A DNA stretch of 64,000 nucleotides from NCBI GenBank assembly GCA_051362555.1, contig CM120641.1:6014001-6078000 (forward strand), written 5' to 3'. The stretch comes from Lingula anatina (lineage: Eukaryota > Animalia > Brachiopoda). The position numbers were made by a program, and so were the translations under genes. Positions 6,522 through 63,998 of this stretch are shown here, piece by piece (position 1 is the stretch's first letter; each line of letters begins with the position of its first letter). The notes beneath the pieces were generated by a model, which searched no databases, had not been told where the DNA came from, and saw only the letters and a list, made by a program, of their open reading frames with translations.

Positions 6522-8720
6522 CTATCTATACTTATCTAGGTCATTTCTATATCTCTTTCTCATGAGATAACAACTCTGTTCATAAAAGAAGAATGAAAAA
6601 CCTGTGCTTAATCCTGCTTTCAACAAACTGGGAGTGATTCCCTTGTAAAAACCACCTAATTTTTCTTCTTTCCAAATCAACTTTATACAATGGCGCAAGC
6701 CATTATAGATCCTATGTTCACCAAATGTTTTTCTTGCTTCTTCAAAACCCTGGACCTGCAGTCTTTTCTTGAGAACATCCAAGGGGTATACAACTGCCTT
6801 AGAACAGGTTCCTGCACAGAAACCACAAGTCATGCTATCCATTGCACCTATTAACATAAAAAATAAAATAAATCAGTTTCAAGCACATCGACCTCTCTAC
6901 ATATATTTATGAATTTCCCAAGGCTAAACTTAAAGCACATAGACTGAATGTGAATGGACAGATAAAAATATTTTACTTTATTATGGCCTGAATGAATAAA
7001 TTTGAGCTAAATGCTTTCTTTTTTCTTTCACCAGGGGCAGATTGAGGTCGTCTCCTTGGCCTTCTGGAACACGGTCAGATTTTCAAGTTTACATTGACGG
7101 GTATCTAATTTTTTCTTTCGGAAGACGGTCAAAATTGGAGGATGGGTCAACAAAGATAATTTGGAAGACTGTCAGAAAATAGCTCTGGATCCACCCCTGT
7201 TTACCCATTTGTTATTGCATAAACATGTTCTACTGTGTACAAGCTATCAGTAAATAAAATATCAGTAAATAAAATAAACAGGTACACTGCTTTAAATCAA
7301 TTGTCCTTAATTTTATATGCTCTAAATCCCTAGCTTCCTTTTTAAAATGACAATCAATAAAGACCATTCTACAGTATTTCCCCTTACATAACACTTCACT
7401 TCCATTAAAAATTGGGAAAAAACACATCTGTAAATACTTACTTCTATTAAATTGGTAGAAACAGAAGTTGAAAAAAGGTAAGAATTTCCAAAAATGTTAC
7501 AGAGGCAAAAATGTTGTGTAATGGCCCTCCACTTACTAATTTCAGATGCGTTTTTAGAAGTCAACAGCTGACCAAAGAATGTGTAAAATCCAAATTGCAG
7601 AGCTGCTTGAGGGAAGACGGTGAGAATTGCTGGCAGAAGTCCCTTATAGAATGCTAAGAAACCTTCTTTAGCATACAGAGTGGAAAATGCATGCCATGAC
7701 GTCTTATAAAACTGGAAGAGAAATGTTTTAGTATTTGATTCATGTCATTATGATGACATACAATAGTCATCTTACCTTCGGAGAAACATATCTTCTTCTT
7801 CTCCCTTTGTCATTTAACTCACTTTAAATTTTAGAGATCATGTTCCCATGTTATGTATTAGAATTGAAAATATGGAATTTTCCCATGGTTTATCAGCCCC
7901 TATTAATCATGAAAGTTTTCACAAGTGATATAATGGTAGAACCAATGTATGTAGAGAAACAACAAAAACATTTTAGCAACTATACGGGCAGAGTTACAAG
8001 GAAATAACAAAAATATTCATATATTTTACACAAATGAAACAATACAGTTTTTTATCCAATTATGTTTATCTTTTGTTTAGGTGATAGATTTTTTTTAAAT
8101 TTTGCCAAAACTTACTTTGCAGAACATCAATGTATGACAAGCTGGCAAAATAAATAATATATTCATAATTTCCTTCAACAAAATGGTGAACTCATGAACC
8201 ATTATCATGTATTTCTAAAGCACACAAAGGACTGCCAATTTGACTGATTTCTGACTATGATTCCCTTTATAAGCAGTCATTTCACTGTTAAACATCTACT
8301 GATGATTGAAGAAAATAAAACAGTTCTACATATCTACTGAGTACGAACCTGTAACATTGAAAATCTGACTAGAGTAAGCTGAGGCATTTACCTTTGGTTC
8401 TCCCTGTCCTATCAAACGTGTCCTTACAACATCTGCTGGCTGACAGAACAAGGTAGAGATACAACCAGCAAGGCCTCCACACATGAAGTGAGTAATTGGG
8501 CGGTAGTCAGTGGTCAGTGTTGATGGCAGTTCATTCCACACTTCTTTAGTGAAAAACTCAAAGGACACAAACTGAAACAATAAATATATGTTGAAAAGCA
8601 AACGATTTCAATATTTGCAGGAAATAGGATTTTTTTTGCTAAAATAAAGAAAAAAGTGGGGATTTTGTGCCTAACTACAGGAATATTATAAGAATTTTCA
8701 GACAAAGCAAAGGAGCATTT

Positions 8721-8761
<41 letters not shown>

Positions 8762-10366
8762 TATTTATTTTAATTTGTGTATTTTAATTTATTTATTTAT
8801 TTATTTATTTATTTATTTTTTGGAGGGGGTGTCCAGAGATTTGAACACGAGGGTTACCATAACCAGACTTGAGCCTGGATTTATATTTAAAAAATATTTC
8901 ATCACTTGTGCTGAGCATAACATTGTGTGGAAAAGCAAAAATCAAAAGCAGTTACAGCCTATGATGCTCTTTCTCTACAAATTTCTGTGTCATTCCAAAA
9001 AGATCTATTCATATTTTACCAGTATAAATTCCTAACATCCCTTAGATAAGGCAATCACTGACATGAATGCAGTTACCTTGAACAATGTTTCCATAAAATG
9101 GAAAATATAGAAATTGTAGGAACTTTTCTATGGGTCCTATTAAATAGGAATTATAGGGGCATTGGTACATGTACATGTAGGTCTGTCAAAACCTACATAA
9201 CATTTATATATAAAGTATATATATTAAAAAAAAACAGTAACAGACATATGTAATCTTTCACACAGAGAAAACAAGATATAAGGATAATAGCTCTAACTAA
9301 ACATTACTTCAGGAGACTACTAGAGTCTTTTGGTAAAAAAAAGCATTTCGTAGATGCCACTGAAATCCTAGTCATTACCTACAATTGTAGTTTACTCTTT
9401 TTAAAGACATTCATAAGTACCAAATTAACATGTCTGTAAAAAAATTTTTTCTTCAATGCATGCAATCCTTGCATTTTAAATATGCATAGACATGTTATTA
9501 TTAGGTTGGTGTAGTAATTCCATTGTATAATACAATTATTACATACCTTTATACAGGCTATTTTAAAAGAGTAGGCAAATTAAAGAAAAAATTATAAAGT
9601 TTTCTGAACATGGGATAAAAACATCTTCATTTTGATTAGAATCTAAAAATATCATGACATTAACTGATATTTCAGTGAACATAATTTTATTAGTGTTTAA
9701 TGCATATATTAGCTGAGCCTAGACTATTCCAAATAAACAGGTAATGGAATGTACATACCTGTACTCCTCCATATGTTACAGACAGAACCTGAGCCGGCAT
9801 ATGACCTTTCCATAAAGCCTTGACTCCTTCTTCAGTCACGATCTTTCTAGTTGCTTGGAGAATGCTTTGGTATTTGGACTGCAGAGATCCTCTTCTGATT
9901 GGCTCAATTTGAAGCTGACATATAAGAGAAAAAACTAATACTATTTATGACACAAATCGTTGTGAAAACCTTATTTATTAAATTTGGAACAAATATCAAA
10001 CCCTCAACCAAAGTTTTATGGAAAGATTTTAAAGGTATGCATTAAATTTGATTTAAAACTGCTATATGTATAATCATGAGTATAAAGCAAAACATATCAG
10101 GGTACTAACTGTAACCTCAAAGAACTGGTCTGTTCAATTCATTAATTATCTGATGACACATTTAATATAAAAGTAAGTCCCATCTTGCTTCTATTTTAGA
10201 ATATTTATTTTACATTCACTTGACACACATTTTTTACCTGAAACCTGATCTTGAGGACATCCAAAGGCTGTATCAATGTCCTTGTCAAGATGCCACTTAG
10301 GGCACCTGCAGCTCCTTGTTCTGTTTTGGATAGCTCTACATCCCTCTTTGGGTCATAGCCAACCAT
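6522..10366 (-). CDS. SLC25A19: Mitochondrial thiamine pyrophosphate carrier (SLC25 family), 5 coding exons, ~321 aa
   Basis: Exons 10366-10238, 9914-9759, 8571-8392, 7711-7537, 6847-6522 join in frame with GT-AG sites. N-terminus MVGYDPK is typical of TPC. Three carrier signatures PxD/ExxK/R: QPLDVLKIRFQ, QPADVVRTRL, YPLDVLKKRLQVQGFEEAR. KGHMPAQVLSVTYGGVQF is also present. Confidence 0.93.
7032..7199. mobile_element. Short non-autonomous element (MITE-like) with CAGGGGCGGATCC-type termini, in an SLC25A19 intron
   Basis: Starts caggggcagatt and ends ggatccacccctg (imperfect inverted repeat). A related left end occurs at 20964. No clear TSD. Confidence 0.5.
8722..8820. repeat. (TTA)n/(TTTA)n microsatellite
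   Basis: Tandem repeat read directly in an SLC25A19 intron. Confidence 0.9.
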
Positions 10367-10750
10367 AATCAGAACGAAGCTGAATAAGATTTCATATAGA
10401 CCATAAACTACGCTGTACATGTGTATTGGTTATACAGTACAACCTGATATCAAGGGTTCCTATAATAGTATACAAAATTGCAGTGTGAGCAATACAACAA
10501 TTTTGAACAGATTACTAGCGCACCCCAGTATTTGTACACCGTTATAACTTATATGTGGGGATGTATAAATTCGTTTAAAATACCTGACAAAATTTGATAG
10601 GGCGTCTTGCGTTATAATAGACTAGGATGGTATTATTAATTTTTTTTCATGTGGTTTTCGTTTAATTATCCAAACAAGATGACAGCCAGGCTCGAGCGGG
10701 ATCAACCAGTACAGTAGCCTAGGATCTAGGCTAGGTGAGTGAGCGTCTTA

Positions 10751-11430
10751 TGCCCCTATTTCACACAGACCATGAATCCCACGAATGGCCGTGAATTGAC
10801 AAATTTCAAGATTTGTGGTTGAATCGTAATCAGTTCGTGAAGTTCTTAACAGATTCGTATATATTCATAGTCAGTTCTTGCACTTCTTGACCAACAGGAA
10901 TTAGTGGCAAAAACTTTGATGCCTCTATTTCACACAGACCACGAATCCCACAAATCGACAGGGATTGAAAATTTCAGGATTCGTGGTTGAATCGTAATCA
11001 GTTCGTGAAGTTTTTTAACAGATTTGTATATAATCGTAGTCAGTTCTTGCAATTCTTGATCAATCGGGAATTCGTGGCAAAAATTTTGAGCTGTTCCAAA
11101 TTTTGGCCACGAACTCCCGATTCCAAAAAATCGTAGTGAATTTCTGGACAATATTCGTGTGATTACAGCCGAATCCCACGAATATACGTAACACTATCGC
11201 ACCTGTTTCGTAACTGAATCGTAGAGCGTGTCGAATTAGACCAGAAAATTGGCAAAATCTCACGATTCCAGTCAAATCCCACGAATATTCGTAACACTAT
11301 CGCACCTGTATCGTAACTATATCGTAGAGCGTGTCGAATTAGACCAGAAAATTGGCAAAATCTCACGAATCCTGAAATTTGTCAATTCCTGGCGATTCGT
11401 GGGATTCGTGGTCTGTGTGAAATAGGGGTA
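10751..11430. mobile_element. PIF/Harbinger-like non-autonomous DNA transposon (~680 bp)
   Basis: Imperfect TIRs of ~60 bp (tgcccctatttcacacagaccatgaatcccacgaat... / ...attcgtgggattcgtggtctgtgtgaaataggggta), flanked by TTA on both sides (10748-10750, 11431-11433). Internal duplication of the left end (~169 bp period) and a ~103-bp tandem repeat. Confidence 0.85.
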
Positions 11431-11633
11431 TTATCTGGCGAGCTAACGACTACAGAATGATCGCGTTAGGGAAACCGACCTGTTAACTTGTGCATGAGAT
11501 AAATCGGTTGCAAGTACCAGTGAATAAGTGTTTACATAGTGTCCGCCTCAGGTAATGTCGCTTAAGATAATCTGGTCTTTCCTCTCATATAAGATATGAT
11601 GGGAAAACCTAACATGTTTGTGTGTTCACTTAC

Positions 11634-11700: not shown

Positions 11701-14700
11701 GCCAAGCAAATTCCAATCGGCAATCCTCGGCCAATTCCGCAAGCTCCATACTCGAGTGCGGAGACATCCGAGTAGTTCCGAGTGAGCAAATTCCGCTTTC
11801 ATTTTGTGAAGCGAAAATGCAGTGGCGAAAACTAAACATGACTGACACTTTCTGTTTTATTCTCATGCCACTGTTAAAGGACAGAAATCGTTAGCCAGTA
11901 CATTTTAATGACTCAGAAATAATTTATTTTACAATCACATATGATTCTTCCATTACTTATAAATGTACATGCACTGGTGGCCGAAGACCGTAACCGGGTG
12001 GGGTGGGGGGGGGGGGGGTGAGGGTCGAAAGAACTGCCCTTTTTGCAGGGAAAAGGTCGGCTCTGGGAAAAAAATTGATCTATGAACACGAAGGTTTTAT
12101 GGTAAAAGGTCCACTTTTTCAAAAAAAAAAAAAAAAAGGCCCACCCCCCTTTGTACTAGTAATTGCTGGTTCCTGCCCTGCAGCCGTACTGGGTAGTGGT
12201 GCACACATTCATTTACAGTAGTTGAACATGGGTTTGTTGAATCAAACATTTAAGTCCGCTGATGATAACTTTCTCATATTCCCAATGAAACTGAGGCAGG
12301 TGAATTTTTCCCGGCACTAAAGCACGCGTGGTCCCACTAACAAATTAAATTTGTTTGCAACGTCAATGGAATTTAATTGTCTATGATCATAGATAAGATA
12401 AAGAATCATTTACTCAATAAATATATAAAATATACATTATTGGAAATCGATTATCCTGTAAAGCGCTGTTGTGTTACAAAGATGTGTAGATAAAGTGTAC
12501 TGTACTATCAGATCTTACACTCCAAAATGCAATTCAAGCCATTTTTACCGAAAGATGGGGAGTTGAACAATAGACAAATTTTTTCGGCGCAGAAGAGGTG
12601 TCCATTTGTCATGTAGAGAAGACATCGACTTCTAGCTTTAACAATTAGATTACAGTCAAACAAGGGTCATATAGAGAAAACAGTTTCCTCCCTTGCTGAA
12701 AGATTAATTACAAATATTCAGCCTTCGTGGTGTATTCAGGTTTACCACAATATCACAAATACAACCACCCAAGTGCAGAGCTGTATTACTCTTGTATATT
12801 GAAACCACTTTCATTGCTGTGCAAAGTACCTGAACATGTTGGGGACGCTTTCCAAACACTGGAATGAATTTTCGTCTTATTGCTTCCTAGTGTTAATTGG
12901 TTATCTGTTTCTTCTATTAATATATCCCTGATACATGGTAAAGTAACTTAAAGGTATCCCATCCGGGATTTTTCGCCAAATCGAATTTTTCTTTAAAATA
13001 AGCAAAATTTCACCCACTCACGAATCATTGTTTGACTAGCTGCCCGGCACTTGGATTCTGTGTTTTATACCATTTTTAATCCAATAAAATAATTCTAAAT
13101 TGTTCCTCTAATGTTTAGACCGCCGTGTCTTCCTGTTCATTTCAGAAGGATATATCAATATCAGGTACCTTTATTTGAGGGTTCTTATCGTTTTTGTGGT
13201 CTTAATTAACTGGAAAAGATAAGTAGCTTTGCAGGATATGTAGACGTATTCGTAGAACATATGACTTAAGTGCAGTTTCAGACGCGAATAGTATACAATT
13301 AAACACTGCAGTTTCATTTATCACGTACCACAGACAATCAATATATTTCAAGCAAAGCATTTATAAAGCTACGATACAGTTAAACGGACATCGACGTCTG
13401 TGTTTTTCGGATAAAGCCGCGTTTTATTTGAGTTGTTTTTCCTTTCGGCATGGCATCTTTTTCTAAAATGTTTAAAAGCTTTCGACCATTGTTTTTTCAT
13501 ACATTCTACATGCATTTAAATTATAATGGTCACTTATAGTTTGGTCCACTTGAGCTTTTTAGTCAATCGACGAATTTTCGAAGGTTAGACCGACCACGGA
13601 TGTGGTGGGATTATTAATTCATAATCTTTGCATTCCTTTAGTAGTTACCGTAGGCATGAATGTCTGATAAACTGAGATTCGACCTTGACTTGATTTTGAC
13701 CTATGTTTCACAATAGTTTCACATTAGTTTTGAAAACTAGGGGCCCAGTAAAAAAGAATAATGATGATGCTAAATGTCCAGGTAAATGCTTTTAAATCAC
13801 ATGTGATTGTAAAATGCTTTCTGGGGGTTTCTTTTCTGGACACATCCAGTACCCCAAACCACATTTCCCCTGAGTTTTTTTTTTTTTTTTCATTTTTATT
13901 TATCAACTTTACAAACTTTTTTTGAAATAAAACATGTTCATTGCCCTTACTGTTTTTATATGACAGTTCATCAGCTACCGAAACAAGTATGCACATCGGA
14001 AGACTTAAGGCGCGCATCAATTAATGGTCAGATATGGAACAACAAAGTTTTTACTTATAACTGTTTCCGTATTTGCCGAAGTAAAACGGTAGTTTATTGG
14101 TAACAGTCAAAGAGCTTTACTGTTTAATTGTCAAATTTATCTATATTCCGGTCATAACACCTACTGTTCGTCATCGAAAGTGTTCTAGGCCTTTTAATTA
14201 CCAATTAAATTGAGGAAGAAAACCAAAGAAAGTATCAATCGGAAACATTACGGTTGACGCTTCTATACTAGATTGACCGTCAATTAAATGCAATCTAAAG
14301 GTATGCAAATAAAATGCGTCATGACTGTAAATATTATCATAGACCTTTAAGGGGTCTTTATGTTTGAATACCTCTGCTTGGCCTTTTAAGATTTAATGGG
14401 TTGTGGTTTACTCCCAAGCACGCAAGGCTAAAGCATATGCAATAAACGATTACAATCCTTGAGGTTGAAAACACCTGTGTGAATTTATGTTATCGTAAAA
14501 GCGTTGACTGGGGTTGATTATTAGTAACATTAAACCGTGTCAAGCATCTTCAAATAATTATAGAATAATGACAAATAGTTGGTCAAAGCATGTCATATTT
14601 ATGAGAGTGAACCTTGTGAGACACTTACACTTTGTTTATTTATTTCCTTGATCTGGCCTCAAAAATTAACAACAGGAAAACGTCGGAGTTTGATATGTGG

Positions 14701-14916
14701 GGTTTTTTCTCTCAGCATAATTGGTTAAATCCTGAAGATGGGAAGTAGAAAGCGTTCCTTTAGAAGGAGACTGGACACGATGTTAAGGATTTTTCCAGAC
14801 ATTTAAGGGTTAATTTTAAGTTTCACAAAGAAATTCAACATTTTTAATATTTTCCAGGCATTGCAAGATAAGTTTTAAGTTCCGTTAATAGATTAAATTC
14901 TAGGATGAAGAGACAG

Positions 14917-14923
14917 TATATAA
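14917..14923 (+). promoter_or_regulatory. Candidate TATA box of cytokine-like gene A
   Basis: TATATAA(GGGG) about 80 bp upstream of the ATG at 15000. Confidence 0.55.
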
Positions 14924-14999
14924 GGGGCAGCAGCTCTTATATTGAGGTAATCTAATTTTTCCTTAAATTTGTTGCACATTGTTAGAGTCCTGGTAAAAG

Positions 15000-16554
15000 A
15001 TGATCACGAAAGGTAACTTTAAAAAACATAGTTTTGTAGACATTTAGTTATCATTAGAGACAGCGAATTATAGATACCCTTTAACAGAAGAAATGGCTTC
15101 AAACTTAAAAGGACTATTAGCTTTATTAATGAAGATATATTAATGGATTTGTGATTTTATAATATCTTTTTACCAGATTAGTTTTCAGATTACAACATTA
15201 GAGGTCATATAGACTGCCTTAACAAAAAGGCTTTTAACCAAATAACCGTAACATGGTTTTCTATAAATGGTAAAACAATACCTTTTTAATCTCAGAATCA
15301 CATTTATTTCAATAAAAACTTTCGCAATCCAGGTTTGATGGTAGTTGTGATTCTATATATAAGCGTTGTGACATCAGACTCTGACTTCAACCCGTGTGAC
15401 GCTGTGAAGATGATTGAGGGCGCCTCTACCCCCTGTGTAGCTGCGGAAATATCTGACCAGTATTTCAATCCATGCGCTGGCTCGCAGCCCGCTGGAAAGA
15501 GCAAGCGTCATATTGGTACCAGACTGGTGAATCACAGGTTTTTGAAAAGGCCAGAACACAAAATTGGATTGCTATTGAATCAATTTGTAAGTTACTTTCT
15601 AATTAAAAATTCGTTTGTGGAAGAGATAAACAGAAAGCGGTGAATTATAAAGACTTTTTTTGCTAGAACTGAAAATAATACAGGTTAGGTGTATCAATTT
15701 GGTTTTAGGTTGATTAGTAAAAAGCTGATAATTTTCTTTTTGCAAGAACAGCAGAAGGTTATATAATGACAAAATTACACAATTTAAAAAACTTTTTGTT
15801 CTAGATCGGGCAGTTCGGCAACATAAGTATAGAACAGTCTAACTTTGATCCTTTCCCAGACGGAATCGTTTCGTGCTTGGAAAGGCATAGCAGCCACTGG
15901 TCAAAGGTACATCTCAGATTAATATTTTCATTGGAATTCTTTTTCTTAACCCTGCTCATTGTCATATGTCATATTTTTCGAAACATCTTTAATTGGAAGA
16001 ATATCAAAATGATTTTTGCCTTATGTAATATGTTGGTCTTAAAAATATTTTTTATTCGCTTAGTCCTATCATATTCTCTACTTCTATGGTCCTATGTACT
16101 TATTCAGAGTTCAATTCATCTGCATGCATTGTCTCATTTTACTACTTTCTCAAGGTTAAGTGATCCGTAAGCATACCTACGTTTAATATACGAAATAGAT
16201 GTGAGCGAATAAGTTAAATATTTTAATATATTCCAGGCATCTAAATGGGATAAGGCTTTCGATTGTCTTCACATGTTGTGGGTTCACTTGAGGGTGGTGC
16301 AGGCAAAAGAGAGAGAACTCCCTAAAATACATGTAGAGGATCTAGAAAATCTGAAAGAGTCAACAACCGATGTCATACAAGAAACAAGAGAACTGCTGTG
16401 TCGAATTAAAGTTAGCCGAGGAAAACCAAAACATTTTTGTGTTCCTGAAATTGAGATTCCCTGTACTCATAAATTGACTAGAGCCAATGTTTTAGACGCC
16501 GGTTATGCAGTTACTTATCGTTTGAATGAAACTCTGCACAGCTTGATCTATTAA
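15000..16554 (+). CDS. Secreted protein A, ~228 aa; putative Unpaired/IL-6-like helical cytokine
   Basis: Exons 15000-15012, 15333-15586, 15805-15906, 16237-16554 splice in frame (intron phases 1,0,0). Signal peptide MITKGLMVVVILYISVVTS; motifs YFNPCAG and TRELLCRIK. AATAAA near 16819. The gene model is well supported; the cytokine call is inference. Confidence 0.8.
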
Positions 16555-19020
16555 AGAATGGACTGTGGTCGTGGGGGATTTTCTCAAAACAGATCGAGTT
16601 CGAATTTGGTTCTGATGGAGACAATTTAAAAGTTTAAGTAGCTAGACTGATCTCACTCGGGAGGGACAAATCTCCAGTCTTTTTTTACAGATAATTGTTC
16701 TTATTTATAAAGATATCTCAGGTTTCATTGCATTTTTCAAACTGTATTTTTATATTGATATCTTTTACGCTTTTTTCTGTGATATTTTTAAATATATTTT
16801 TGTACTGTATTATTGACTAATAAAGCAGACTGAAAACGAAGCACATTTCTGGTTTGATTATGATATTTGCAAGTGTTTTAATACTAGACTAGGGAAATTC
16901 AAAACTTAAGGGCCATGCAGGGGCGCTTGTTTTAAACCTATAAGACATTAAGAATCGCGTCTTAGTCTATGGTTCCCTAAGAAGTTTGTCCAGTTACGGA
17001 CATATCACAATGGTTTATCCTCGCAGTTCTATCACATATTGAAAGAGAGTTACGTCACTTTGCGACTACCATGATAGATTGCTGATGTTTAACAAGATAA
17101 GCACAATAGTATGAGTGGCAACTTCAGTTTCATTTTTTTGTTGCATTAATCGAGCTGCTAAGAGAAAGTATCATTATATTAATTTCAGAAACGACGTAGG
17201 CCTTTTTTCTTTTCATTTCCTCTTATCCATTTAAGCAGCCTTGAGTCTCACTGTCCTTAAATAGAAATAATATTGATAAGGACATTTGGGAAGGAAGAAG
17301 TTGGCACGTGTCAGATATGAACCTCAGGGTAGGACAGAGAAGCAAAAATGAAACCACAGATATGCCAAATGCTATCGCTACTGTTCGTTTTGTCAAATTT
17401 ACACCTGCATTCCACCAATTATAGATATATTCAAACTAAAAGAACCTTAATTAAAATGAAACCAGTGGTGATTGGCGTTGTTCAGCAAAGCAATGGCGAT
17501 TCACGTTGCGAGCAACGGTGGCTTTTCTCCGTCTGTCAAACGATTCAAGGTAATTTTGTATCAATTAAAATTCATAATGATCATGATAATTATTTAGGGT
17601 CCAAAATCCAAAGGTATTCAATAGACTGCAGTGTGTAAAATATTAACCAAAGAATATCTATTTGAAATATACACATGAATAATTAAAAGTTAGTCATTTA
17701 TTTGTTAAGAAATATCCACTAAACAATAAAACACACAAGAGCCCTAAATTTCCAGTTGTAAAATTTATTTAAAAGCTAAATGTTCAATTCCTTTTAAAAG
17801 CTCTGAGGGGAAACTATAGGCTACGTAATGAAAATGGAAGTGCACTTCATTCGTTTGGTGCTGCTACCGCAAATGAGCCGTCCCATCTAACCTTACAAGG
17901 TATTGGAAACAGATGGTCAAATTACCGTGATTTGTGATGGGTGCATATTATGGTTCACTTAAGACATTATTGTAAAAAAATATAGAGGCGCAAATTAAAA
18001 GGTTTAAAATGTGCTCTTATGGGTAGTCAGTGAAGTTGTTGGACGATGAGCGTGGTGTGACTTTTGTAAGGCTAGCAGCGGTGATTTGAACGCACTGTAG
18101 ACGTTTGACTGTTTGACCTTTTCATGAGGACATCCATAGAGAAGAGGATGTGAATTTCCCCATCTAGATGTGACAAGGGCATTTATGACAGTAGCGGTAG
18201 AGGAATCAGTAAAATTATTTCTCAAGGGCACAAATTTTCTGGCGTGAAGCACGTAGGATGCAGAAATGTGGGATATTTAATGTCTGTCCCTAGATAAAAT
18301 TTGGTCTACATTAACACCTAGAAGCACTGACCACACTTTCACCAATCTTGACACGGAGGGGTTCTACATGGGCACTGGTTGTTTCATCAGTTCAGATGGT
18401 GAACGTAATGGTGGCACAGTTGCTTCCTCCAGAACTTCCAGTTTCTCATATTTACTCCGAATTTTCATAACACAGTTCAAGAGTACATCAATAATCATTT
18501 TATACTTTTAAAAATCCTCGATACGCTGATTGTACCATAAAGTCATATATAAAAGCGGTTATCTTGGTGCATTTTAGTAACTAGATAACCTTAGGTGTAA
18601 TAAATGCATGCAAATAAATATGAATACAAATGGTAAAAAAAAAACAAGAAAATTAGATTAAATAATTTTTATTCAACAACTAAAAAAGTAAAAAAAAAGT
18701 TCTTTAATGGATGACACGTGTAAAAAGACGCCAATCAAAAACTACTGAAAACAAAAAGCTCAATGTACAAAAATAAAATATTCAAAGTATAGGATGTAAA
18801 CGTGATATAATAAATCTTTTATTAGAGTAAAACAATAAGGCCACATATTCATAATAAAACGTACGCCTAAAAATATGCATTCACTTGGAATATATGACAA
18901 AAGTTCTATCAAAAAAAGAGATCATATCAAAAATATATGGTAAAAATACATGTATATTTGTAGATGCTAGAATTATATAATATTATACAATAGGATTTTG
19001 TAATCGGTGTGTAATTTTGT

Positions 19021-19397
19021 CTAAACACATCGACTCTCCAAAGCAGACACTAATGCAAAAGATTCGCCAAATGTTTCCATACTCTGAACCAACCAATCTG
19101 CAATGGTAAGCCTTTGAAGTCTCTTTCTTCTTTTTAAACCTCTTGAGAGTTTCCTGGGAGACAACCGCCTTATTTTAGGATTGGTCAGCTTTATCTTGCA
19201 CATCAGCTCAGGAATATCGCTGAACAGTCGACTAGGTCCTTGGAGGTTTCTTTTTATATGTCTGGGCAAATTATTCTTCGGGTCACAAAGACCCCTTAGG
19301 TCGTAGAACTTTTTGACAAGTTTTCGATAGATGCGTCCGCATTTGGGCTTCAAAAAGAAGAAAAGGGTGTTGCATTGCTAATAGTTGATAACTAGTT

Positions 19398-19446
<49 letters not shown>

Positions 19447-20651
19447 GGGAGCGTCTCAATAGTCTTCGGGCATATAAGTTCGAAATGCTGTTGGTCCGAA
19501 ACTTTTTTTTTTTTTTTTTTGTTTTTTCAGAGGCTCGTTGATCTGAAGGTTCAGTCAACAATTGCAAACAGTAAATTAAGGAGAACAAGAAGGGGTAATG
19601 ATGTTAAAAATGATTTTTTGCAAGAATGACCTTTCGGTCCAACTCTTTTTGGAAACTAAACCAATACTCCGAATTATTATTATCATTTTTTTGTTTCTTT
19701 TTGTTTTTTCGAGACACACCCTACAACGTTTACAATGTACATATTTGCATGCAAGTAAAATCTAAACAAGTAATAATAATAGTTAATAATAAGTAATAGT
19801 CACTTCTCCTTGTTTGTCCGAATTTTTCTCAGAGCACTGACGGTATTACTTCATCCCCTCACATATATTCCAGTCACTTTTCAGTTTGCTGAACATCGTC
19901 TCTAGAAGATATTATACTTCTAGTCCCTTGCCTACACTGGTCTATCGTTTCATTGTGTGAAAAGCTTCAGTGGCCAGACAATTTTCACGGTGCATGTAAG
20001 ATAAACAGTAAAAAAAGACCCACAATAAATTCGGCAACCGTAGGATGCGCCAACATATAGATAATATTATTGCGATAGTATTATTCAAGGCAGACTATAA
20101 TACTCACCCTTTTGTGTCGTCTTGTCAAACTTGGTAATGCCTCATTAGTGGCATTCCTCACCGATATCATACTCTGCAAGGTGAAAAATGAAATCAGTAT
20201 CAGTTACGATGCCCACTCTAAAAGAAAAACAGTTGTTGATCGAATTGCTCAGAATTGCTTCATTGTTAAGGCTCACATAATACATCACCAGTCACTCGAA
20301 AACGCAGTTGCAGTACGTGTGAGAGCGATGGATTGATCGATTCAGTTACATATAAACGCACGAGCTTTGACACTTTATGCTATTTATGGGTTTCGGTCTT
20401 CTTGTGAAGATCTGGTACGCAAGCCCGAAAAAGTCTCAGTAGTTTTAAAACTGGCGTTTAGATTTAAATTTTGACCCTTTTTTGTGTTCTGACCAAATAT
20501 CCACCCCTTCACGCGCGTATGTAAATATTTATCACAAAGGTGATTCATTCTTATCATATACATGTATACAAGAAGAATGAATCACCTTTATCGTACCCAC
20601 ATGATAGATGGGGGATTTCCCTAGTATTTTTCTGCTGGTGAGTTCTTGGTG

Positions 20652-20697
<46 letters not shown>

Positions 20698-21017
20698 TAG
20701 AGAATTTCTGCCGTAATTTTTAACAGGATAAGCACTTGATATCGAATAATTCTATGAACTTAGATAAATGTTCGATCTATGCTACTGCATACTTACGTAA
20801 CGATGATACACATTCCGCAGCTTTTTCTTGTATTTTCTGATTGAATGAAGCGCAACTGGAAAACGGACACCAACGTATCATAGGAAAATGTAACCAATAA
20901 CTAGCACATGATAATATGCATAATGATTTAAAACTATAACACATGCAAAAAATAGAATATATACAGGGGCGGATCCAGGACTATATGAAGGGGAAGGGGT
21001 CTGCGGATGCGAAGCCG

Positions 21018-21058
<41 letters not shown>

Positions 21059-21596
21059 TGGCGCCCCCCTAAATTTCCCCCCCTGACCCCCCCCCCTAAA
21101 TTTGCCACTGAAACATTACTTTTAAAATTCAGTCAAGTAAATGAAAACGCCATACCATGTCCTTACCAGCTCTATTTAATGTTATCTTTGTAGATGTGGG
21201 GGGCATTTGAATTAATTCTTTTGTTGTGGTTTTACCACCGCAAGGATTTACAAGACTACGGTAAAATGAATCTTCGTCAGGGCATTCATGGCTACTGTCG
21301 GTCAGAACGGACACAACCCCAAGTGAACATAAGACGATTGCGGCACCTAGATAAAACGTAATATTATAAACGCGTGTATGTATTAACATTTTTTAATTTG
21401 AAAAGTTTATTTAAAAATAAGTGTAAGATAGAATGATAAATTCATAATTGACTATATAACTGTGCAATGATCAGCAGTAAATTCATTCAAGATTGTATAA
21501 TTCATTAATTAACAACTAATTGCGATTTTCCAAACAATAGCGTTTGAAATGCGGAGATTAAGGACCTGTAAAAAAAAACTCACCTTCAATTTTCAT
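19021..21596 (-). CDS. Secreted protein B, ~214 aa; paralog of A; putative Unpaired/IL-6-like helical cytokine
   Basis: Exons 21596-21584, 21346-21167, 20855-20797, 20173-20108, 19347-19021 splice in frame (phases 1,1,0,0). Signal peptide MKIEGAAIVLCSLGVVSVLT; motifs LVNPCGG and IPELMCKIK; very basic C-terminal loop. Confidence 0.8.
19399..19443. repeat. (CA)n microsatellite
   Basis: Read directly; lies in the last intron of gene B. A (TA)n(CA)n compound repeat is at ~20653-20695. Confidence 0.95.
20964..21110. mobile_element. Short MITE-like element with internal poly-C tract, in an intron of gene B
   Basis: Starts caggggcggatccagg and ends aaatttgccactg (degenerate inverted end). Poly-C at ~21019-21055. 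Confidence 0.5.
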
Positions 21597-21681
21597 TCTT
21601 CTTGTTTTAAATAACTTAAATCATCCTAACACAAGTTTTTATAATCTACTCAGGTTTACATAAGAAAAAACATATTCTCAC

Positions 21682-21911
21682 CGAAATTCCCATTTTGTTT
21701 CCATCAGTTGGATCAGTGGGCGAAATGGAACGGTACAGATCTGTGTTACATTATACCCAGTATAGTGCGTGAAACTCAGGGGGATGTCTGTGAAACCCAG
21801 CAATGATGTCAGGGGAATACCGACTAAATCGTCACGATAATAGGTCACGAGTCGTCAGTGTCAACACAATTTGTATTTCACAGCACACAGCCTGACTGTT
21901 AGGGGATTTCC
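21682..21911. promoter_or_regulatory. Cluster of NF-kB-like sites plus a CRE-like site upstream of gene B
   Basis: GGGGATTTCC (21902-21911, full kB consensus), GGGGAATACC (21812-21821), GGGAATTTCG (minus, 21682-21691), TGATGTCA (21804-21811). TATAAAA on the minus strand at 21637-21643. Confidence 0.5.
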
Positions 21912-23405: not shown

Positions 23406-26400
23406 ATGTACAGAATAAGTTTTTGCGGCGCCTTGGTGGTTGGTTTGATAGCGTTAACACAGATTTTGGCAAAAGAAGGTAGGTTGACACCTTAGGAATA
23501 ATTATATCTGAACGTTAAGATTGGTTTATTATTTTTCGATAGCATGGTTTACATGTAGGTACAGTTTTCACTCTTTCTTGGTTCTTTTGATCATTAGTTG
23601 CATCTTAGCACGCCGTTATCATCTTCCAATTAAGATTCCTACTATCATGTATGTACAGTTTTCACTCTTTAGTGACTCTTTTGATGATTTATACATTGCA
23701 TGTGGGCTTATTTTGCGAAAACGGCCCATTTAACGGGTTTGATATCATATTTGTTGTGATAGTCTTTTGGTTTATTGACTATTAAAACAGTTTTTTGTAA
23801 ATTTTTATGTTAAACATTAACGATAACTAATAATTAGCTGCATCTTAGCATCTTCTCATCTCTGCATCTTCCATCAATTAAGATTATTACTATTATATCG
23901 CTAGCTCTTGTATCATTTCATGATGTCTATTTTGTAAAAAAAAATGCAAAATATCTTAAGACGTGTTTTGTGTTCAGAGTCAACATTGAAAAATGCCCTC
24001 AGTAACGTGAAAAAGTTAAACAATCTTTAGAATGGGGTTAACATTTTCCAGAATTTTCTCCTCGAAGTTTGTCCTCAAAAAAGTCAATATTTTCCAGAAC
24101 TTCCTCCTTAAGGTAAAAAATAAGTAATGCCTCATGAAAACTGACTCTTTCTAATTAATACTTGGATTGCCGCCGTTTCTTACATAACCATCGAGTAAAA
24201 ATATACAAGTTGCACCAAAATGTGACGGGTAAGGAAAGGACAGACCGGCCAAAGTCAACGCGTGCAGTCGGATGTAATAGAAACGATGTATGATACACCA
24301 GATTATTTCACCACCCTCTCGTGATTCATGTGCCCGAGCCCCTTTTCTTCGACCGTAGAACATACTCTGTTCCGGCCAGTGACTATTTGTCACAACTTTT
24401 TCCGTGTTTTTTGCTAGTATGCTCTTGACGTTTGCAACTATTCTTAAAGATTTTATTTAGTATTCAGCGGTCAGTGTTGCCTGTCCCCAGACTTCCCGAT
24501 TTAATGTGTGGTCAGCGTCATTTACAATGAGATTAATTAGGTCTATAAAATTTCCATTTTTTTTCTCGGAAAAAGAAAAACGTCTGTCTGAATGCGAGGA
24601 GAAAGAACCCATATTTGAATAATGTACTCATTATCATGGTAGTGATGAGAATACAACGTAGATGTAACTTGTATCTTAGCAAAAACTCGGCATGTGGCAA
24701 TAACATAACACTAACGAGAGCTTAACCCGAAATATTTTGTTAGAAACCATCTGCAATTTTTTTTGTCTTTGTGTGAGCGCCTGTGCCAACAGCTATAACA
24801 CTAGGAAGTACAGAATAACAGACTGCCTATTCATCAAATAAACAGAGCAAAAGGCAAAACATAAATCGTAAAAACAGACAAGGCAAGATGTAGGGAAATT
24901 GTGTTGTAACGCACGTTTACAATACTTGAACCAATGCATGAAAAATGACACCGCTTGAACGCTTGAAAATTTGAATATATATTTTCCATATGTATGACAA
25001 TAACTTATTTTCATTGTGACTATTGTGAAAATGATGACGATTAAAGAAGACCATTAACAATGGTCTCAAGAAAGCAAATGTCACATATGATACCCAATTT
25101 TCGCTACGTAAAACGACTGTCACACTACAGCACGGCTTCAGGAAGGGATGAATAAATCTCATATCTAACGGTCGGTTCAAAGATGCCACCAGAAATTAAT
25201 ATGAAGAAAAAAAATTTAAAACCATCTTCCCATATATATTTATTCATGCAGTCATTAGTCCACCTACCTGCTTCTTCATATTTTTTCATTTATTTGTTCC
25301 CTTGTCACATATACTATAAATTCCTAGTGCATCTAGGCAACAACTGATTCCAATTTCATAATTAATGTTTATTTCTAATATTCTAGATCTCCCAGACAAC
25401 AAAGGACGCGAGTTTATCATCATCTTCCAGGAGAACAGTATAAAACGCCGCGGCCGTACCTCAGAGGAGCTTCAGCTGTTCCTCACCACAGACTACGAGA
25501 AAGACGTCTCCGTCAATATCAGCACCCCGTTAGTGCCGCGATCTCAAGTTAAACGGGTTGGTATTACAAAATAATGGCTGTATGTATACATTTTGACGTT
25601 TGAGTGACAATAATTTTACAACAAGTTTGGCAGATATCGAGTCGAGTCGAGGGCGTCAGCCGACGCCAACACGGGAAGCACTGATTGTTTCCCGCCACTC
25701 CTTCCGGTGCTCCATCAGTGTTTGCACTACGTCGTATATCTCATTCATTATCAGATATAAATTGATTTTATTTTTTTTGTGAAGTTAAATCCTTCAACTC
25801 ATTAGATAGGCGAGAACATACCATCTACATCTATGCCTAAAGTATTCCACATTTTTACTCTAAGGTCAGACAGAATGATTACTGGTTAATCTCATATCTG
25901 GCGACCCTCTGTAAACAGGGTATAGGCTGACATAATTTATTTTTATGTTTTTTTTTCAAAACTTATGATGTTTAACGAGCATACAGCTAAATGTTAGGGT
26001 CAGTTTTTTGAGTAGGAAGATTTAAGAAATGAAGCCGAACGTCAGTTGCAATTTTTTTTATCATTTACCAAACCAATACTGAATGCATTTTCTTCCATTT
26101 AAAAAAATAGGTGCGAAAAAAAATCTGATTTCTTTAAAATAAAGGTCGGTCGTACTCGTGTACTAATTTATCGAATTTATCTGGCCTATATTACAAGGGA
26201 ACCTTAGTCCGACTTCACTTAAGTTTCGATTCCATAGATTTTATTTCTCATTTAGGTACATGTACAACGAGGTAGCATGACGGAGGTGAGCCTCTCGGCA
26301 AATATTCAATTAGAAGGCACGAAAAAAGAGAACAAAGGCATCTTGATAACAGCAGAAGAAGAAATCGTTGTTTATGGTGCTAACATACTCAGTATGAGTA

Positions 26401-28833
26401 CGGATGCTTTCATATGCCTACCTACAGACATTCTTGGGACAACTCACTTCATCCCATCGTGGCCAAAGGAGTCCAAATACGTGGGATCGCAAATAGGTAA
26501 TGCCATTGTTTTTCGTTAGTCTGTTTCTTTCCCTGATTAGTCTGTTTTCTTATTGCGCGATATCATTAACATGTTTTAAGTCATCATAGCGAGTCAGATC
26601 TGATCGTAATTCTGTAACAGTATTCCTTAGGGGTCAGCCATTCTTTTATCCAAGATAAAGTTTTTTTAAAGAGTAGACTTTTTTCCAGACCCCCTCTACC
26701 CCTACTCCTCTTCAGAGAGAACAAGGTAAAAAACTAAAAATGCCAGAGCTCCCCTGGGGGTGAAGATCATCATTTAAAAGCATACAAAGAGCATGCTCCC
26801 TCCCAGCGCACGGTTTGTAAACTCGTGAAAATGGTGATAAAATGGATGATCCCTTAATGCCCAACGTTGTACCGTTTTAGGAGTTGTGGCGACCCAAGAC
26901 AACACCATGGTGAATTTCACATTCCCTAACGACGGGCGAAATGTCAATGTGTCTTACAGGAGCAGGTGGTACGGGGACGGTGAGACACTCAGCGTTCTGT
27001 TGAACAGGTACCAGACCATGCAGGTCCAGAATGAAGTGGACTTAACAGGAACTAAGGTGGTGTCGAATAAACCTATTGCAGTAATGTCAGGAAACAAACG
27101 GACCAGCGTTGGTGGTGGGCGCGGCACGGATCACCTCGTGGAGGCCATACCGCCTGTGAATACGTGGGGAAAACGCTTCGTCACTGTGCCGACGGCGGAG
27201 GACAGGGAAGGCGATTTCTTTCGAGTTTTAGGTATGGCAAAGTTAAATGTATTTGATTTTTGTACTTTAGAAACCCTTTAGAAACCCCCATATTTTTGCT
27301 ATTTAATTTTTTTCTTTTTTCCATTGTTTGTTCACTTTCTGCTTTAGATTTTAGGCCTTTAGATATGATTAACTTTAAATAAAACAAATGAAAATTAATT
27401 GGATTTTCTGTCGCTTCAAGTATGTAGGTGTTCTGTCGGCAAACATGTTTTATATTATTCTTCAATCTTTAGGCGGCAAAGCTGGAACAGAAGTCACAGT
27501 TCGGGCCACTGTGAATTCGACCATCACGAAATATCAATTGAACGCTGGCCAGTTTCTTACGTTAGATGTTCCTTCTGAAGAGTACCTATATATAGAAAGC
27601 AACCAATCCATTTTGATAACCCAGTTTTGCAAGACATGTAAGTAGTAAATTCCACGGAGAACTTGTCTGTAAAAATACAATACAACTGAGTTTGAACCAA
27701 AATGACCATCTGTGAAAAATCTATCAGTCGCCCTGGTAGAGGGTAGTCATGGCCCGGATGCCCAGTAAGGGTTGGCGAAAACAAATTTAATAGCGGTTGA
27801 TTATCCGTCAAATTAAACATCCCTCGGTCACACTTATCGATTAAAAATTAAAAATTAAAGAGACGGTTTAGATTTCAATCAGAAACAGATCAGTCACACT
27901 TTTTGTTTTGTTTTGTGTACAGCAAAACGGTCTGTGAAGAAGGATCCGTTCATGATGTACATACCGCCCATCGAGCAGTTCGCCTCTGACTACACCTTTG
28001 CAACTGTGCCTGCCGGCTATTACCCTTTCACTAACTTTGTGGGGGTGGTCATCAAAACGACCGAAATCAGCGGTCTGAGACTGGACAATCAGACAATACC
28101 TATTGACCAATGGGACAGAGAATGGCAGGTTATAGCTAATACAGAGTACTCGGCAAATATCTTAAAAGTCACCAAGGGCACTCACTTGCTACGCCATCTG
28201 TCCCCTATTGTCTCCTTCGCAGCCTTTATGTACGGGTTTGGGTCTCAGGAGTCCTATGGATACCCGGCAGGGATGCGGCTTGCAAGCATAGGTGAGCACT
28301 GCCACCCAAGCCAGAGCCCGCCTGGTCCTGACGGCAAAGACAACGATTGTGATGGAAGGATTGACGAAGAACTAGCCAATGGAGTTGATGATGACGGTGA
28401 TAGTTTAGTAGACGAGGACCTGGCGACAGTGATCAGTGAAACGCCGACTACGACGGTCACAACGACGATAAAAACGCACAAGGAAAATGACTCCGTTTCA
28501 GCTGAAGATATGTTAAAGACTACGAAAGATGAAAAAGAAGGGTGGTTACACATTAATTTCAAAGACAAAGACATTGAAACAAAAGAGATGTCCAACTTTT
28601 CATTTCAAAAGATAGCTTGGACAAAAGAGAAAATGAAGGTTATTCTTGGTACAACCTTGCCCATTGTACTTCTCATTATCGCGGCTATCGTTGTAACCCT
28701 TATCGTATTGTACCGCCACAAACGCAGAGAAGCAGTTGTCGATTTGGAAGCCACTTTGATACAGAAGACAAACCAGAGAGACAATGCGGTGGGTACGCCA
28801 GATGGCGCTATGAACTCTTCATTGCCAACATAA
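23406..28833 (+). CDS. Type I membrane protein with an IgGFc-binding protein N-terminal domain (FCGBP-N-like), ~636 aa
   Basis: Exons 23406-23478, 25387-25556, 26256-26496, 26881-27231, 27473-27637, 27923-28833 in frame. Signal peptide MYRISFCGALVVGLIALTQILA. Family motifs DNKGREF, STDAFICLPTDILG, DLTGTKVVSNKPIAVMSG, DHLVEAIPPVNTWG, DPFMMYIPPIEQF, ESYGYPAG. Then DGKDNDCDGRIDEE, a Thr-rich stalk, a TM helix (ILGTTLPIVLLIIAAIVVTLIVLY) and RHKRR. Confidence 0.88.
25921..26190. mobile_element. MITE-like element in intron 2 of the IgGFc-domain gene
   Basis: Imperfect inverted termini tataggctgacataattt / aatttatctggcctata. Confidence 0.45.
26627..26857. mobile_element. MITE-like element in intron 3 of the IgGFc-domain gene
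   Basis: Imperfect inverted termini ttaggggtcagccatt / aatggatgatcccttaa with TTA/TAA-type flanks. Confidence 0.5.
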
Positions 28834-30175: not shown

Positions 30176-30233
30176 ATGATGAAGCGCTTTTTTTCGTTAA
30201 TCAAAATTGATTTTAGAGATAACCATAATCTAT

Positions 30234-31571
30234 ATGGATAAAGCTATTTTAAATAACCGTTTGCGAAAGTTAATCGCGAAGTACGACGTTGAACGCATTG
30301 TTCCGGAGTGCTTGAATTGGAGTTGCGAGGACGTAGCTGACTGGATAGAAAAACTTGGATTTCCTTTATATAAGGTAGGACCTTTATAATAGCACTGTGT
30401 CCTTCTGCATGATAGGTTTTGGGCACTTTTTTCAAAAAATCTATAAAAACCAAAAACGTTTCCATGCTGGTTACTGCCAAAACTCTTACTTTAAGATCAT
30501 TGCATGATATAATCCAACAAATAGGGCCTAGATGCTTGGTGTACCCTATGATTTAACTAGTTAGTAGTCATACATGCATGATTAAAAAAAAATTATGAAT
30601 GGACAAAAAGTTAAATTAATCGTGGTGCAGGCTTGGAACTATGAGTCATGTACATGTACGTTGCTCATTGCTTGGAATAAGTGTGTAAGTGCATAACTGA
30701 CAATGCTGCTTTTATTCATATTTATTTCAATGTTTTATAACATTCAACGCCACGTGCTATTCAAACAATTTTGAATGCGTTTCAATAGAAGTTTTAACTA
30801 AAATCCTACTTCAAATTTTCCAAATATTTTTCGGTCACGATTTATAATTCTTGATTTCCCAATAGGAATGCTTCCTTCTCAATGTAATCAACGGACGACG
30901 CCTGATTCTTCTCGATATCCAAACATTACCGAAAATTGGCATTGTAGATTTTGAGCATATGAAGGTATGGCATGTGATGTGACATTATTGTAGAAGTTGC
31001 CAAAATAATGAAATGTAAAAACTTTGGAAGTAACCAAGGTGTGTTTAATTCTCCTAAAAATATTTTGTATGAAGATATGCCGAGCGTCTTCTCTTGCATA
31101 CTGAAATAACGTCACCCTCTGCCAAATCGTGAAATAATCATTGATATCTACTACAATGCATGGTAGGTAAGTGACAAGGTGTACTTAAACTATACCGAGC
31201 GACGCTCTGCGAAAAATAGCGTGCCGGTTCCATCTGCCCAGAGTCAGCCGGGACCCACCCATGCAGGACCTACGTGAAATTTGTTTCTATGTCCATTGTG
31301 GATTATCCCCATTTAAGATTAATGTTTTAATCAGGCTCCTTCTCTACAGGTAATCACCAGTGCAATCCGTCGTTTACTGGGGCTAGAGGAACCCTACTGG
31401 GACCGCTGTATTATGCTGTTTCGACGTGAGCCCCTCGCGCTTTGGCTGGAGCAGAAACAGTTTACAGGAGAAAAATATGAAGACCTGACAATCCACGAGT
31501 TCTTCTTGCAGAATCCCGATCTTTTCCATGAATGGCTACTACTTTATGAACCAAAATTAAAAGACGATTAG
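30234..31571 (+). CDS. SAMD15: Sterile alpha motif protein, SAMD15-like, ~153 aa
   Basis: Exons 30234-30374, 30866-30964, 31350-31571 (phases 0,0). SAM signature WSCEDVADWIEKLGFPLYKECF..NGRRLILL..LPKIGIVDFEHMKVITSAIRRLLGLEEPYW. Confidence 0.8.
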
Positions 31572-32600: not shown

Positions 32601-33191
32601 ATGGCAGGGCTTTTGGGCAAACTAGCGGCCCTTAGTCGAGAGCCACAGGCACCGGCATCTAACACCGAAGAATCATCAAGGAGGGAATCCGTCGCGGACT
32701 CTGATGGCGGGAGCGACTCGGGGAATAGAGGACTGTTGTTGCTGAGACGCAAAATGTCACGCTGGAAGGCTTCAAAGGGGGGAACCGCGTCTGGTAGAGG
32801 GAGCTTGTTCAAATCTATCCCCGAGGTAGCAAAAATGGAGAACACATACAAAATGGAACCAGACGATGGAACAAAATTTTTGGCCGGACCAACACGAAAA
32901 ATAATCGAAGATGTTCTAACCACTTATCTTCGCGATCTTGATTATGACCCAAAAGTTTGCGCTCGCATGTGCCAGAAAATGAGCGATGAGATTAAAAAGC
33001 GGACTAAGCGTCAGCCGTTTCATAGATACAAGTTTGTCTGTTTCGTGGTGGTTGGTCAGAAGAAAGATCAATCTTTTGAATATGCGAGTAGATGCTTGTG
33101 GGACGACAAAAAAGACAACTACGCAACCTGCACGTTTCAAAATAAAACTATCTTCGCCACGGCGACGGTGTATGGCGTCTACTTCGAATGA
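32601..33191 (+). CDS. Tctex1-domain dynein light chain (TCTEX1D1/DYNLT5-like), ~196 aa, single coding exon
   Basis: Motifs MENTYKMEP, RYKFVCFVVVGQ, ASRCLWDDKKDNYA and VYGVYFE at the C-terminus. An acceptor just before ATG 32601 and a donor near 32286 suggest a 5' UTR intron, so 32601 is preferred over the ORF-track start at 32553. Confidence 0.9.
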   Translation: MAGLLGKLAALSREPQAPASNTEESSRRESVADSDGGSDSGNRGLLLLRRKMSRWKASKGGTASGRGSLFKSIPEVAKMENTYKMEPDDGTKFLAGPTRKIIEDVLTTYLRDLDYDPKVCARMCQKMSDEIKKRTKRQPFHRYKFVCFVVVGQKKDQSFEYASRCLWDDKKDNYATCTFQNKTIFATATVYGVYFE

Positions 33192-63841: not shown

Positions 63842-63998
63842 CTGAAAATAAATACAATATACACACACTTTAGTTCTAATGGTTCTTGTGTGAGATCTGG
63901 TTCTGCAGACAATAGTTGTACTGGATGCAGACTGCACATCACATATGGTGCCATCTATACTCACAACATTACTGGTTCTGAAAATAAAAACAATATAC
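63731..63998. repeat. 136-bp-period tandem duplication of a PKHD1L1 acceptor plus partial exon
   Basis: actttagttctaatgg...ctgaaaataaa.acaatatac at 63731 and 63867, with only a few substitutions. Confidence 0.9.

Follow-up and report, generated by a model that had tools for sequence, protein, structure and literature searches.

A stretch of 64,000 nucleotides from the genome of the brachiopod Lingula anatina (positions 6,014,001 to 6,078,000 of contig CM120641.1, GenBank assembly GCA_051362555.1; hereafter, the window) contains two convergent multi-exon genes, gene A on the forward strand and gene B on the reverse strand, that lie tail to tail with their facing stop codons ∼2.5 kb apart. These genes very probably encode a real pair of secreted paralogues, and their products are likely, though not proven, to be the kind of JAK-STAT ligands that have been reported missing in most invertebrates. 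The initial annotation had described the two proteins as ∼228 and ∼214 amino acids long, each with a signal peptide, and the rebuilt exon chains agree with that description. Gene A (15000 to 16554) consists of four exons that form an open frame of exactly 228 amino acids, with intron phases 1, 0, and 0; gene B (21596 to 19021) consists of five exons with an open frame of exactly 214 amino acids and intron phases 1, 1, 0, and 0. Both N termini are hydrophobic. Each protein has a single hydrophobic peak in that region (11-residue mean hydropathy of up to 3.1 in A and 2.7 in B and of no more than 1.4 elsewhere), and the signal peptides and the lack of a transmembrane segment were judged from hydropathy alone. 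The predicted mature chains comprise ∼208 and ∼193 residues with even numbers of cysteines, 8 in A and 6 in B. The two products differ in charge: the gene A protein has an isoelectric point (pI) of ∼8, whereas that of gene B carries 44 Lys and Arg residues versus 14 Asp and Glu residues (pI ∼10.6).

All seven introns are of the GT-AG type, and five of the seven donors fit the GTRAG pattern, compared with 193 of the 7,122 GT dinucleotides in the window (2.7%); the exon boundaries were, however, picked with the splice signals in view. The G+C content is 42% in the exons and 34% in the introns. Both genes start with a coding exon of just 13 nucleotides that ends in G and is followed by a phase-1 intron, a combination that occurs at 7 places in the 64 kb. 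It is very improbable that one or both exon chains have been mis-assembled or that one of the genes is a recent unexpressed pseudogene. Such an explanation would fit the abundance of stop-free stretches of at least 80 amino acids in the window (101 in total) and the weak third donor of gene A (GTACAT); set against these points, both chains are open throughout, with canonical splice sites, TATA boxes, and poly(A) signals, and the similarity between A and B spans separately predicted exons. The same explanation could also account for the lack of junction reads in the RNA runs, two of which (of four) gave no test, although inducible cytokines are often absent from the libraries of unchallenged animals.

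The RNA reads came from four of nine listed runs, all with the same species label, of which 6, 6, 25, and 30% were used, and were aligned to positions 14700 to 21900. Two of these runs (X7 and X9) produced no reads in this region and carry no weight either way. The other two produced 25 (X1) and 2 (X4) reads, nearly all of them partial matches within intron repeats, and no splice junction of A or B was found in the ∼6% of each of these two runs that was covered, with no control gene for comparison. The RNA data neither support the gene models nor count much against them. A short repeat in intron 4 of gene B (19761 to 20242) attracts partial matches of reads that stem from other transcripts, with loose read ends at 19921, 19932, 19993, and 20065.

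The relationship between the two proteins can be recognized from several comparisons. The six motifs quoted in the initial annotation as occurring in the same order in A and B were all found in their places on the expected strands (Table 1). In global alignments of the mature proteins, the z scores ranged from 3.9 to 5.4, and the scores were reached by none of 2,000 shuffles in each of the three scoring schemes. When compared with the ends of 100 other stop-to-stop open reading frames of at least 80 amino acids, the last exons of A and B were each other's best matches (z scores of 4.6 and 4.2, with runners-up at 2.0 and 2.9). Local alignments were weaker, with scores reached by 6 of 2,000 shuffles for the full proteins and 14 of 2,000 for the mature ones; by part, the corresponding counts were 88 of 5,000 for the last exons and 839 of 5,000 for the N-terminal halves. 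A single-sequence hhalign comparison of A with B gave nothing (probability of 0.07). Judging from the sequences, A and B are distantly related paralogues. Searches of the window with tblastn and motif scans revealed no third member of the family. The 90-codon open frame that lies between A and B on the reverse strand (18004 to 18276), with adjacent broken frames extending to 18500, has just a chance match in Pfam; these frames resemble what we take to be the C-terminal end of the reverse transcriptase of an L2/CR1-type long interspersed nuclear element (LINE). The open frame was set aside as a possible third cytokine, as it looks like the decayed end of such a protein.

Exon 2 of gene A contains, at 15386 to 15502 of the forward strand, a degenerate triplication of a 39-nucleotide unit that encodes three Pro-Cys units spaced 13 residues apart (C26, C39, and C52). 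Only 16 to 20 of the 39 bases are alike between the units, and the triplication is apparently internal to gene A and old. The N-terminal cysteines of the gene B protein are C26 and C40. Because of the three Pro-Cys repeats in A, its match to B allows two registers, in which the counterpart of the VNPCGG motif of B is either the third unit or the second one. Accordingly, the pairing of FNPCAG with VNPCGG suggested in the initial annotation holds in that both motifs are present, but its register is not unique, the alternative being the alignment of C26 and C39 of A with C26 and C40 of B. Possible partners of C26, C39, and C52 in A are C178, with which helix C would end, and C191 and C199 of the loop leading to helix D.

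Table 1. Features of genes A and B and of their surroundings (positions are those of the window)
Feature	Position(s)	Strand	Remarks
Gene A TATA box, TATATAA	14917..14923	+	83 nt 5' of ATG; consensus match only
Gene A coding exon 1	15000..15012	+	13 nt, followed by a phase-1 intron
Gene A exon 2	15333..15586	+	Remainder of the predicted signal peptide, three Pro-Cys repeats, putative helix A up to a phase-0 intron
Gene A motif FNPCAG	15464	+
Gene A exon 3	15805..15906	+	34 codons, phases 0/0; putative AB loop with C113; weak donor GTACAT
Gene A exon 4	16237..16554	+	105 aa and stop; putative helices B, C (ending ELLCRIK, C178), and D, with CD loop (C191, C199)
Gene A motif TRELLCRIK	16384	+
Gene A motif VLDAGYAVTY	16489	+
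Gene A poly(A) signal, AATAAA	16819..16824	+	265 nt past the stop
Gene B TATA box, TATAAAA	21637..21643	-	47 nt 5' of ATG; consensus match only
Gene B coding exon 1	21584..21596	-	13 nt, followed by a phase-1 intron
Gene B exon 2	21167..21346	-	Remainder of the predicted signal peptide, C26, VNPCGG (C40)
Gene B motif VNPCGG	21251	-
Gene B exon 3	20797..20855	-	59 nt, phases 1/0; putative helix A, strongly amphipathic
Gene B exon 4	20108..20173	-	22 codons, phases 0/0; putative AB loop
Gene B exon 5	19021..19347	-	108 aa and stop; putative helices B (C109, C127), C (ending ELMCKIK, C156), and D (C213)
Gene B motif IPELMCKIK	19215	-
Gene B motif METFGESFAL	19080	-
Gene B candidate poly(A) signals, AATAAA	18668..18823	-	198 and 348 nt past the stop; 3' region with 77% A+T
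NF-kB-like site GGGGATTTCCC	20611..20621		Gene B intron 3
NF-kB-like site GGGGATTTCC	21902..21911		∼310 nt upstream of gene B; noticed after the fact

The case for a cytokine combines the architecture of the two genes with general features of the cytokine families. The mature chains fall within the range of ∼160 to 210 residues that is typical of class I long-chain cytokines. The genes for IL-6, IL-11, G-CSF, GH, and EPO have a very short first exon with a phase-1 intron, followed by phase-0 introns, and their introns are located where helix A ends and immediately ahead of helix B. The exon with which helix B begins carries Leu residues at positions 11 and 18 in both IL-6 and G-CSF; Leu residues are found at the same positions of the last exon of A and are conserved in B according to the alignment of the two last exons. 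Unpaired proteins carry NPCG, LLCEI, and RDW motifs; in LIF, an HPC motif lies close to the N terminus and helix C ends with VLCRL, where Cys131 is placed. Next to these, A contains NPC(AG) and LLCRI and B contains NPCG(G), LMCKI, and, in B only, ADW, all in order. Although each of these motifs is short, their order, their spacing, and the introns next to them are as expected in both genes, which have diverged independently. The suggestion of long-chain four-helix cytokines made in the initial annotation remains compatible with the size, the intron phases, the spacing of the helices, and the cysteines, but neither the searches nor the structure predictions brought confirmation. It is quite probable that A and B fold as long-chain helical cytokines. 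The probability that they are ligands of a Domeless/gp130-type receptor and signal to the JAK-STAT pathway can be put at roughly 0.6.

Structure prediction with AlphaFold covered only the last exon of gene A, taken alone or with B as the second row of the alignment. Helices appeared at the positions of B and D in both models. With the exon alone, the predicted helices spanned residues 3 to 24 and 82 to 104, at a mean confidence (predicted local distance difference test [pLDDT]) of 48. With B as the second row, the pLDDT was 40 and the helices were at 3 to 27, 33 to 37, 43 to 55, and 85 to 104, with a 29-residue coil preceding the last one. This order might be a hint at helix B, a short loop, helix C, a long loop, and helix D of a long-chain cytokine. 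A Foldseek search of the PDB with the model of the last exon of A found no match at an E value of ≤0.001, and VIA-align comparisons of both models with 48,161 chains gave best Z scores of 5.3 and 5.7, with no cytokine among the best 50. Given the low confidence of the models (pLDDT of 40 to 48), these fold searches are uninformative. Hydrophobic moments provide a second view of the fold. In the gene B protein, four proline-free amphipathic segments are located at residues 66, 107, 171, and 189, an arrangement equaled in 11 of 500 shuffles, and A and B have amphipathic segments at four matching places, above chance in B only.

Sequence searches were performed with single exons or with alignment A1, the two-sequence alignment of the last exons of A and B, which narrows their reach. 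A word-index search with the last exon of A yielded 53 candidates among proteins of 185 to 2,000 amino acids, none of them at an E value of ≤10; with alignment A1, there were 995 candidates among proteins of 190 to 2,000 amino acids and no matches. In the ESM Atlas, the best values were 0.86 for A (unnamed proteins and helical bundles of tethering complexes) and 0.76 for B; these are low recognition values and serve as leads only. Several candidates were rejected. The match of the last exon of A to the Pfam family Baculo_LEF5 had an E value of 0.14, below the cutoff, and is ascribed to chance; three matches in the PDB to helices of gyrase A and SPC105 (E values of 0.17 to 0.59) were discarded; and 3 of 96 pattern matches in metagenome contigs that passed, each 17 to 21 residues long, were also taken as chance. 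No search produced a confident match to an unrelated family, so none of the findings that the initial annotation had named as speaking against a cytokine materialized.

A number of results weigh against the cytokine interpretation. The profile of alignment A1 had no HMMER match at an E value of ≤0.001 among 1,835,955,588 representative proteins. Exons 2 and 4 of A and exon 5 of B, scanned singly, had no match in Pfam, including its cytokine and Unpaired families; the Unpaired model spans several exons and HMMER filters discard weak matches, so that a single-exon scan has limited power. Sequence and profile searches of the PDB, done with the last exons singly and with the two-sequence profile, found no cytokine at an E value of ≤10, although a two-sequence query is too shallow to be expected to reach the IL-6/LIF families. 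On the structural side, the model of the last exon of A alone has a beta strand, not a helix, across the LLCRIK segment; the amphipathicity of A is not above that of shuffled sequences (76 of 500); and the putative helix C of B contains two prolines, and its top amphipathic windows are not proline-free. The IL-6 gene has an intron between helices C and D, which neither A nor B has, and whereas the 1, 0, 0 phases of A fit the class I pattern, the 1, 1, 0, 0 phases of B include an extra phase-1 intron. The motifs used in the comparison with known families are short. The lack of junction reads belongs on the same side.

Another explanation is a different kind of protein: A and B could be lineage-specific, fast-evolving secreted cysteine-containing proteins, such as pheromones, gamete-recognition, mucus, or defense proteins or precursors cleaved at dibasic sites, in which the cytokine motifs are coincidental. 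The absence of a match in any library, the unconfirmed fold, and the beta strands in the middle of A in one of the models speak for such proteins. The gene B protein has as many as 11 dibasic sites (there are two in A), but its basic residues are located mostly on the faces of the putative helices and in one loop and do not flank repeated peptides. The putative loop between helices C and D of B is very basic. Coincidence is also hard to reconcile with the agreement with a single known class in length, in the phases of the introns, in the spacing of the helices, and in the order of four motifs, and with the amphipathic periodicity of B, which is above chance. This explanation is considered unlikely.

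If A and B are indeed cytokines of this type, their mode of action can be outlined as follows. After removal of the signal peptide, each chain would be exported and would form helices A to D, with helix A encoded by the final part of exon 2 (gene A) or by exon 3 (gene B) and helices B, C, and D encoded in the last exon. The N-terminal Pro-Cys would form a disulfide bond, as in LIF, to the cysteine of the Leu-Leu-Cys or Leu-Met-Cys sequence that ends helix C. Both proteins would engage a Domeless/gp130-type receptor at its cytokine-binding module and dimerize this receptor, leading to the activation of JAK and STAT. The pair may have arisen through an old inverted duplication followed by a division of roles. 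Because it is very basic, the gene B product would be held on heparan sulfate and could act as a short-range signal; A, which is near neutral, would be more diffusible. Conceivably, gene B might be induced via NF-kB upon infection or injury and be nearly silent otherwise.

Five matches to kB-like sites at three places were detected in the window; with at least 5 matches in 18 of 100 shuffles, this number does not exceed chance. Two of these three places are at gene B (Table 1), a placement noticed afterwards. Seven STAT-like sites were found in the window, none of them at A or B, and this count is not above chance either (35 of 100 shuffles). There are few ATTTA motifs of the AU-rich type (2 and 4). 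A nearly perfect 54-nucleotide palindrome without a spacer (20536 to 20589; 27-nucleotide arms, 89%) adjoins the kB-like site in intron 3 of gene B.

Another possibility concerns the receptor, namely that A and B are hormones with a cytokine fold that use a short receptor of the GH/prolactin/EPO type or the CRLF3 type, or are decoys, instead of ligands of a tall Domeless/gp130 receptor. The 13-nucleotide first exon with a phase-1 intron is known from the GH and EPO genes too, but the combination of an N-terminal Pro-Cys with a cysteine in helix C and the patterns of helices B and D are nearer to those of LIF, G-CSF, IL-6, and Unpaired. In the available literature, amphioxus is described as having a single prolactin-receptor-like cytokine receptor (PMC12284397) and CRLF3 as an orphan class I receptor found across eumetazoans (PMC8063046). 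On balance, this possibility appears improbable.

The window is animal genomic DNA with a G+C content of ∼35% and contains several other recognizable genes, none of them for a receptor of such ligands. Upstream of A and B is a multi-exon gene for a mitochondrial carrier (6525 to 10430, reverse strand; Pfam Mito_carr, E value of 2.8e-22), which we take to be an SLC25A19-like thiamine pyrophosphate carrier. On the opposite side, Pfam searches identified a membrane protein with an IgGFc-binding domain (26250 to 28833, forward strand) that has metal-binding repeats of the DNDCDG type, a stalk rich in Thr, and a transmembrane segment at its C terminus. It is followed by a small gene with a weak match to the SAM_1 domain (30201 to 31571, forward strand; E value of 0.004), presumably SAMD15-like; a single-exon Tctex-1 gene (32601 to 33188); and a GOLD_2 gene of the ACBD3/TMED8 type (35675 to 39241, reverse strand). 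The Tctex-1 protein is itself absent from the protein collection and had only 4 matches among 128 candidates, one unnamed (41%) and three from Branchiostoma (36 to 46%); these would fit a slowly evolving marine invertebrate but are too distant to indicate a phylum. SAMD15 and TMED8 presumably adjoin in the human genome as well, and the proximity of the SAM-domain and GOLD_2 genes is a possible case of old microsynteny. A large fibrocystin-L (PKHD1L1)-like gene with exons for a CEMIP-type beta-helix (47779 to 63954, reverse strand; Pfam) runs past the end of the window. Mobile elements have left traces in the window, too. A 130-codon frame (37664 to 38053, forward strand) has no convincing match in Pfam and resembles the C terminus of the reverse transcriptase of RTE-type LINEs. 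An element that resembles a miniature inverted-repeat transposable element (10750 to 11431) has 68-nucleotide inverted ends that are 90% complementary and 546 nucleotides apart, as well as internal direct repeats of 103 and 169 nucleotides.

JAK, STAT, and receptors resembling Domeless/gp130 occur widely among invertebrates, with helical ligands reported only in insects and jawed vertebrates. A 2026 survey of 18 phyla or subphyla treats the ligands of the IL-6 family as restricted to vertebrates, the invertebrate exceptions being the insect Upd and a shrimp lectin (PMC13203501). Similarly, a 2025 study describes leptin and IL-6-family cytokines as unannotated outside jawed vertebrates, including in tunicates, amphioxus, and cyclostomes (PMC12284397). 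A protein of a different kind, Vago4, has been presented as a ligand of Domeless in shrimp (2026 preprint, 10.64898/2026.10.26.761873). A literature search, with most subscription journals outside its scope, did not turn up any paper on helical ligands of the Unpaired/IL-6-like type in invertebrates other than arthropods, nor a citable source for an intron-phase rule of class I cytokine genes or a description of the Unpaired motifs. Recent structure-guided searches are reported to have revealed hidden IL-1 proteins across the invertebrates (PMC13736523) and, in lamprey and lancelet, interferons (10.64898/2026.05.30.728932), which makes hidden helical cytokines a reasonable expectation. Should A and B be such ligands, the gap would be one of detection, and the activator of invertebrate JAK-STAT signaling would become directly testable with two defined proteins.

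A bolder and rather doubtful proposal is that A and B combine the Unpaired motifs with the LIF-type disulfide bond between the N terminus and helix C and represent the cytokines of a lineage without any known ones. If this is true, they would bridge Unpaired and the vertebrate gp130 family and show that the last common ancestor of bilaterians had a tethered LIF-like ligand. They would also supply the orphan Domeless/gp130 receptor of this lineage with two ligands, one bound to the matrix and the other diffusible.

Among the known systems, the IL-6/gp130 family, with LIF/OSM/CNTF and G-CSF as the closest pattern, shares with A and B a secreted-type mature chain of ∼200 residues, the short phase-1 first exon with mostly phase-0 introns after it, and the positions of introns relative to the putative helices A and B. 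Unlike the members of this family, A contains its Pro-Cys unit in triplicate and has three cysteines around the putative CD loop, and neither A nor B shows sequence similarity to the solved structures that is detectable with phmmer or profiles. The likeness to Unpaired (Drosophila Upd1 to Upd3) consists in the NPCG-like N terminus, the LLCxI-like helix C, and, in B, the DW that would start helix D, whereas A and B are shorter than the Drosophila proteins and their scanned exons lack a match to the Pfam Unpaired family. Several features of the known systems are documented in the literature. The fold of class I cytokines is an up-up-down-down bundle in which the helices are joined by long loops, and in flies gp130 has a homologue in Domeless, with Upd3 as one of its ligands (PMC7378365). 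The IL-6 genes consist of five exons, with helix A encoded in exon 2 (PMC7284502). LIF contains a Cys18-Cys131 disulfide bond (PMC3865251), and the cysteines C26, C39, and C52 with C178 in A and C26 and C40 with C156 in B are at places that appear compatible with such a bond. The distribution of Upd is controlled by heparan sulfate proteoglycans (PMC6826283); A and B, like the Unpaired proteins, are clustered paralogues, and one of them is as basic as a ligand bound to heparan sulfate would be expected to be. Membership of A and B in any named family is not established, with no defining feature tested coming out against it, and their resemblance to the vertebrate LIF, G-CSF, and IL-6 is at least as close as that to Unpaired.

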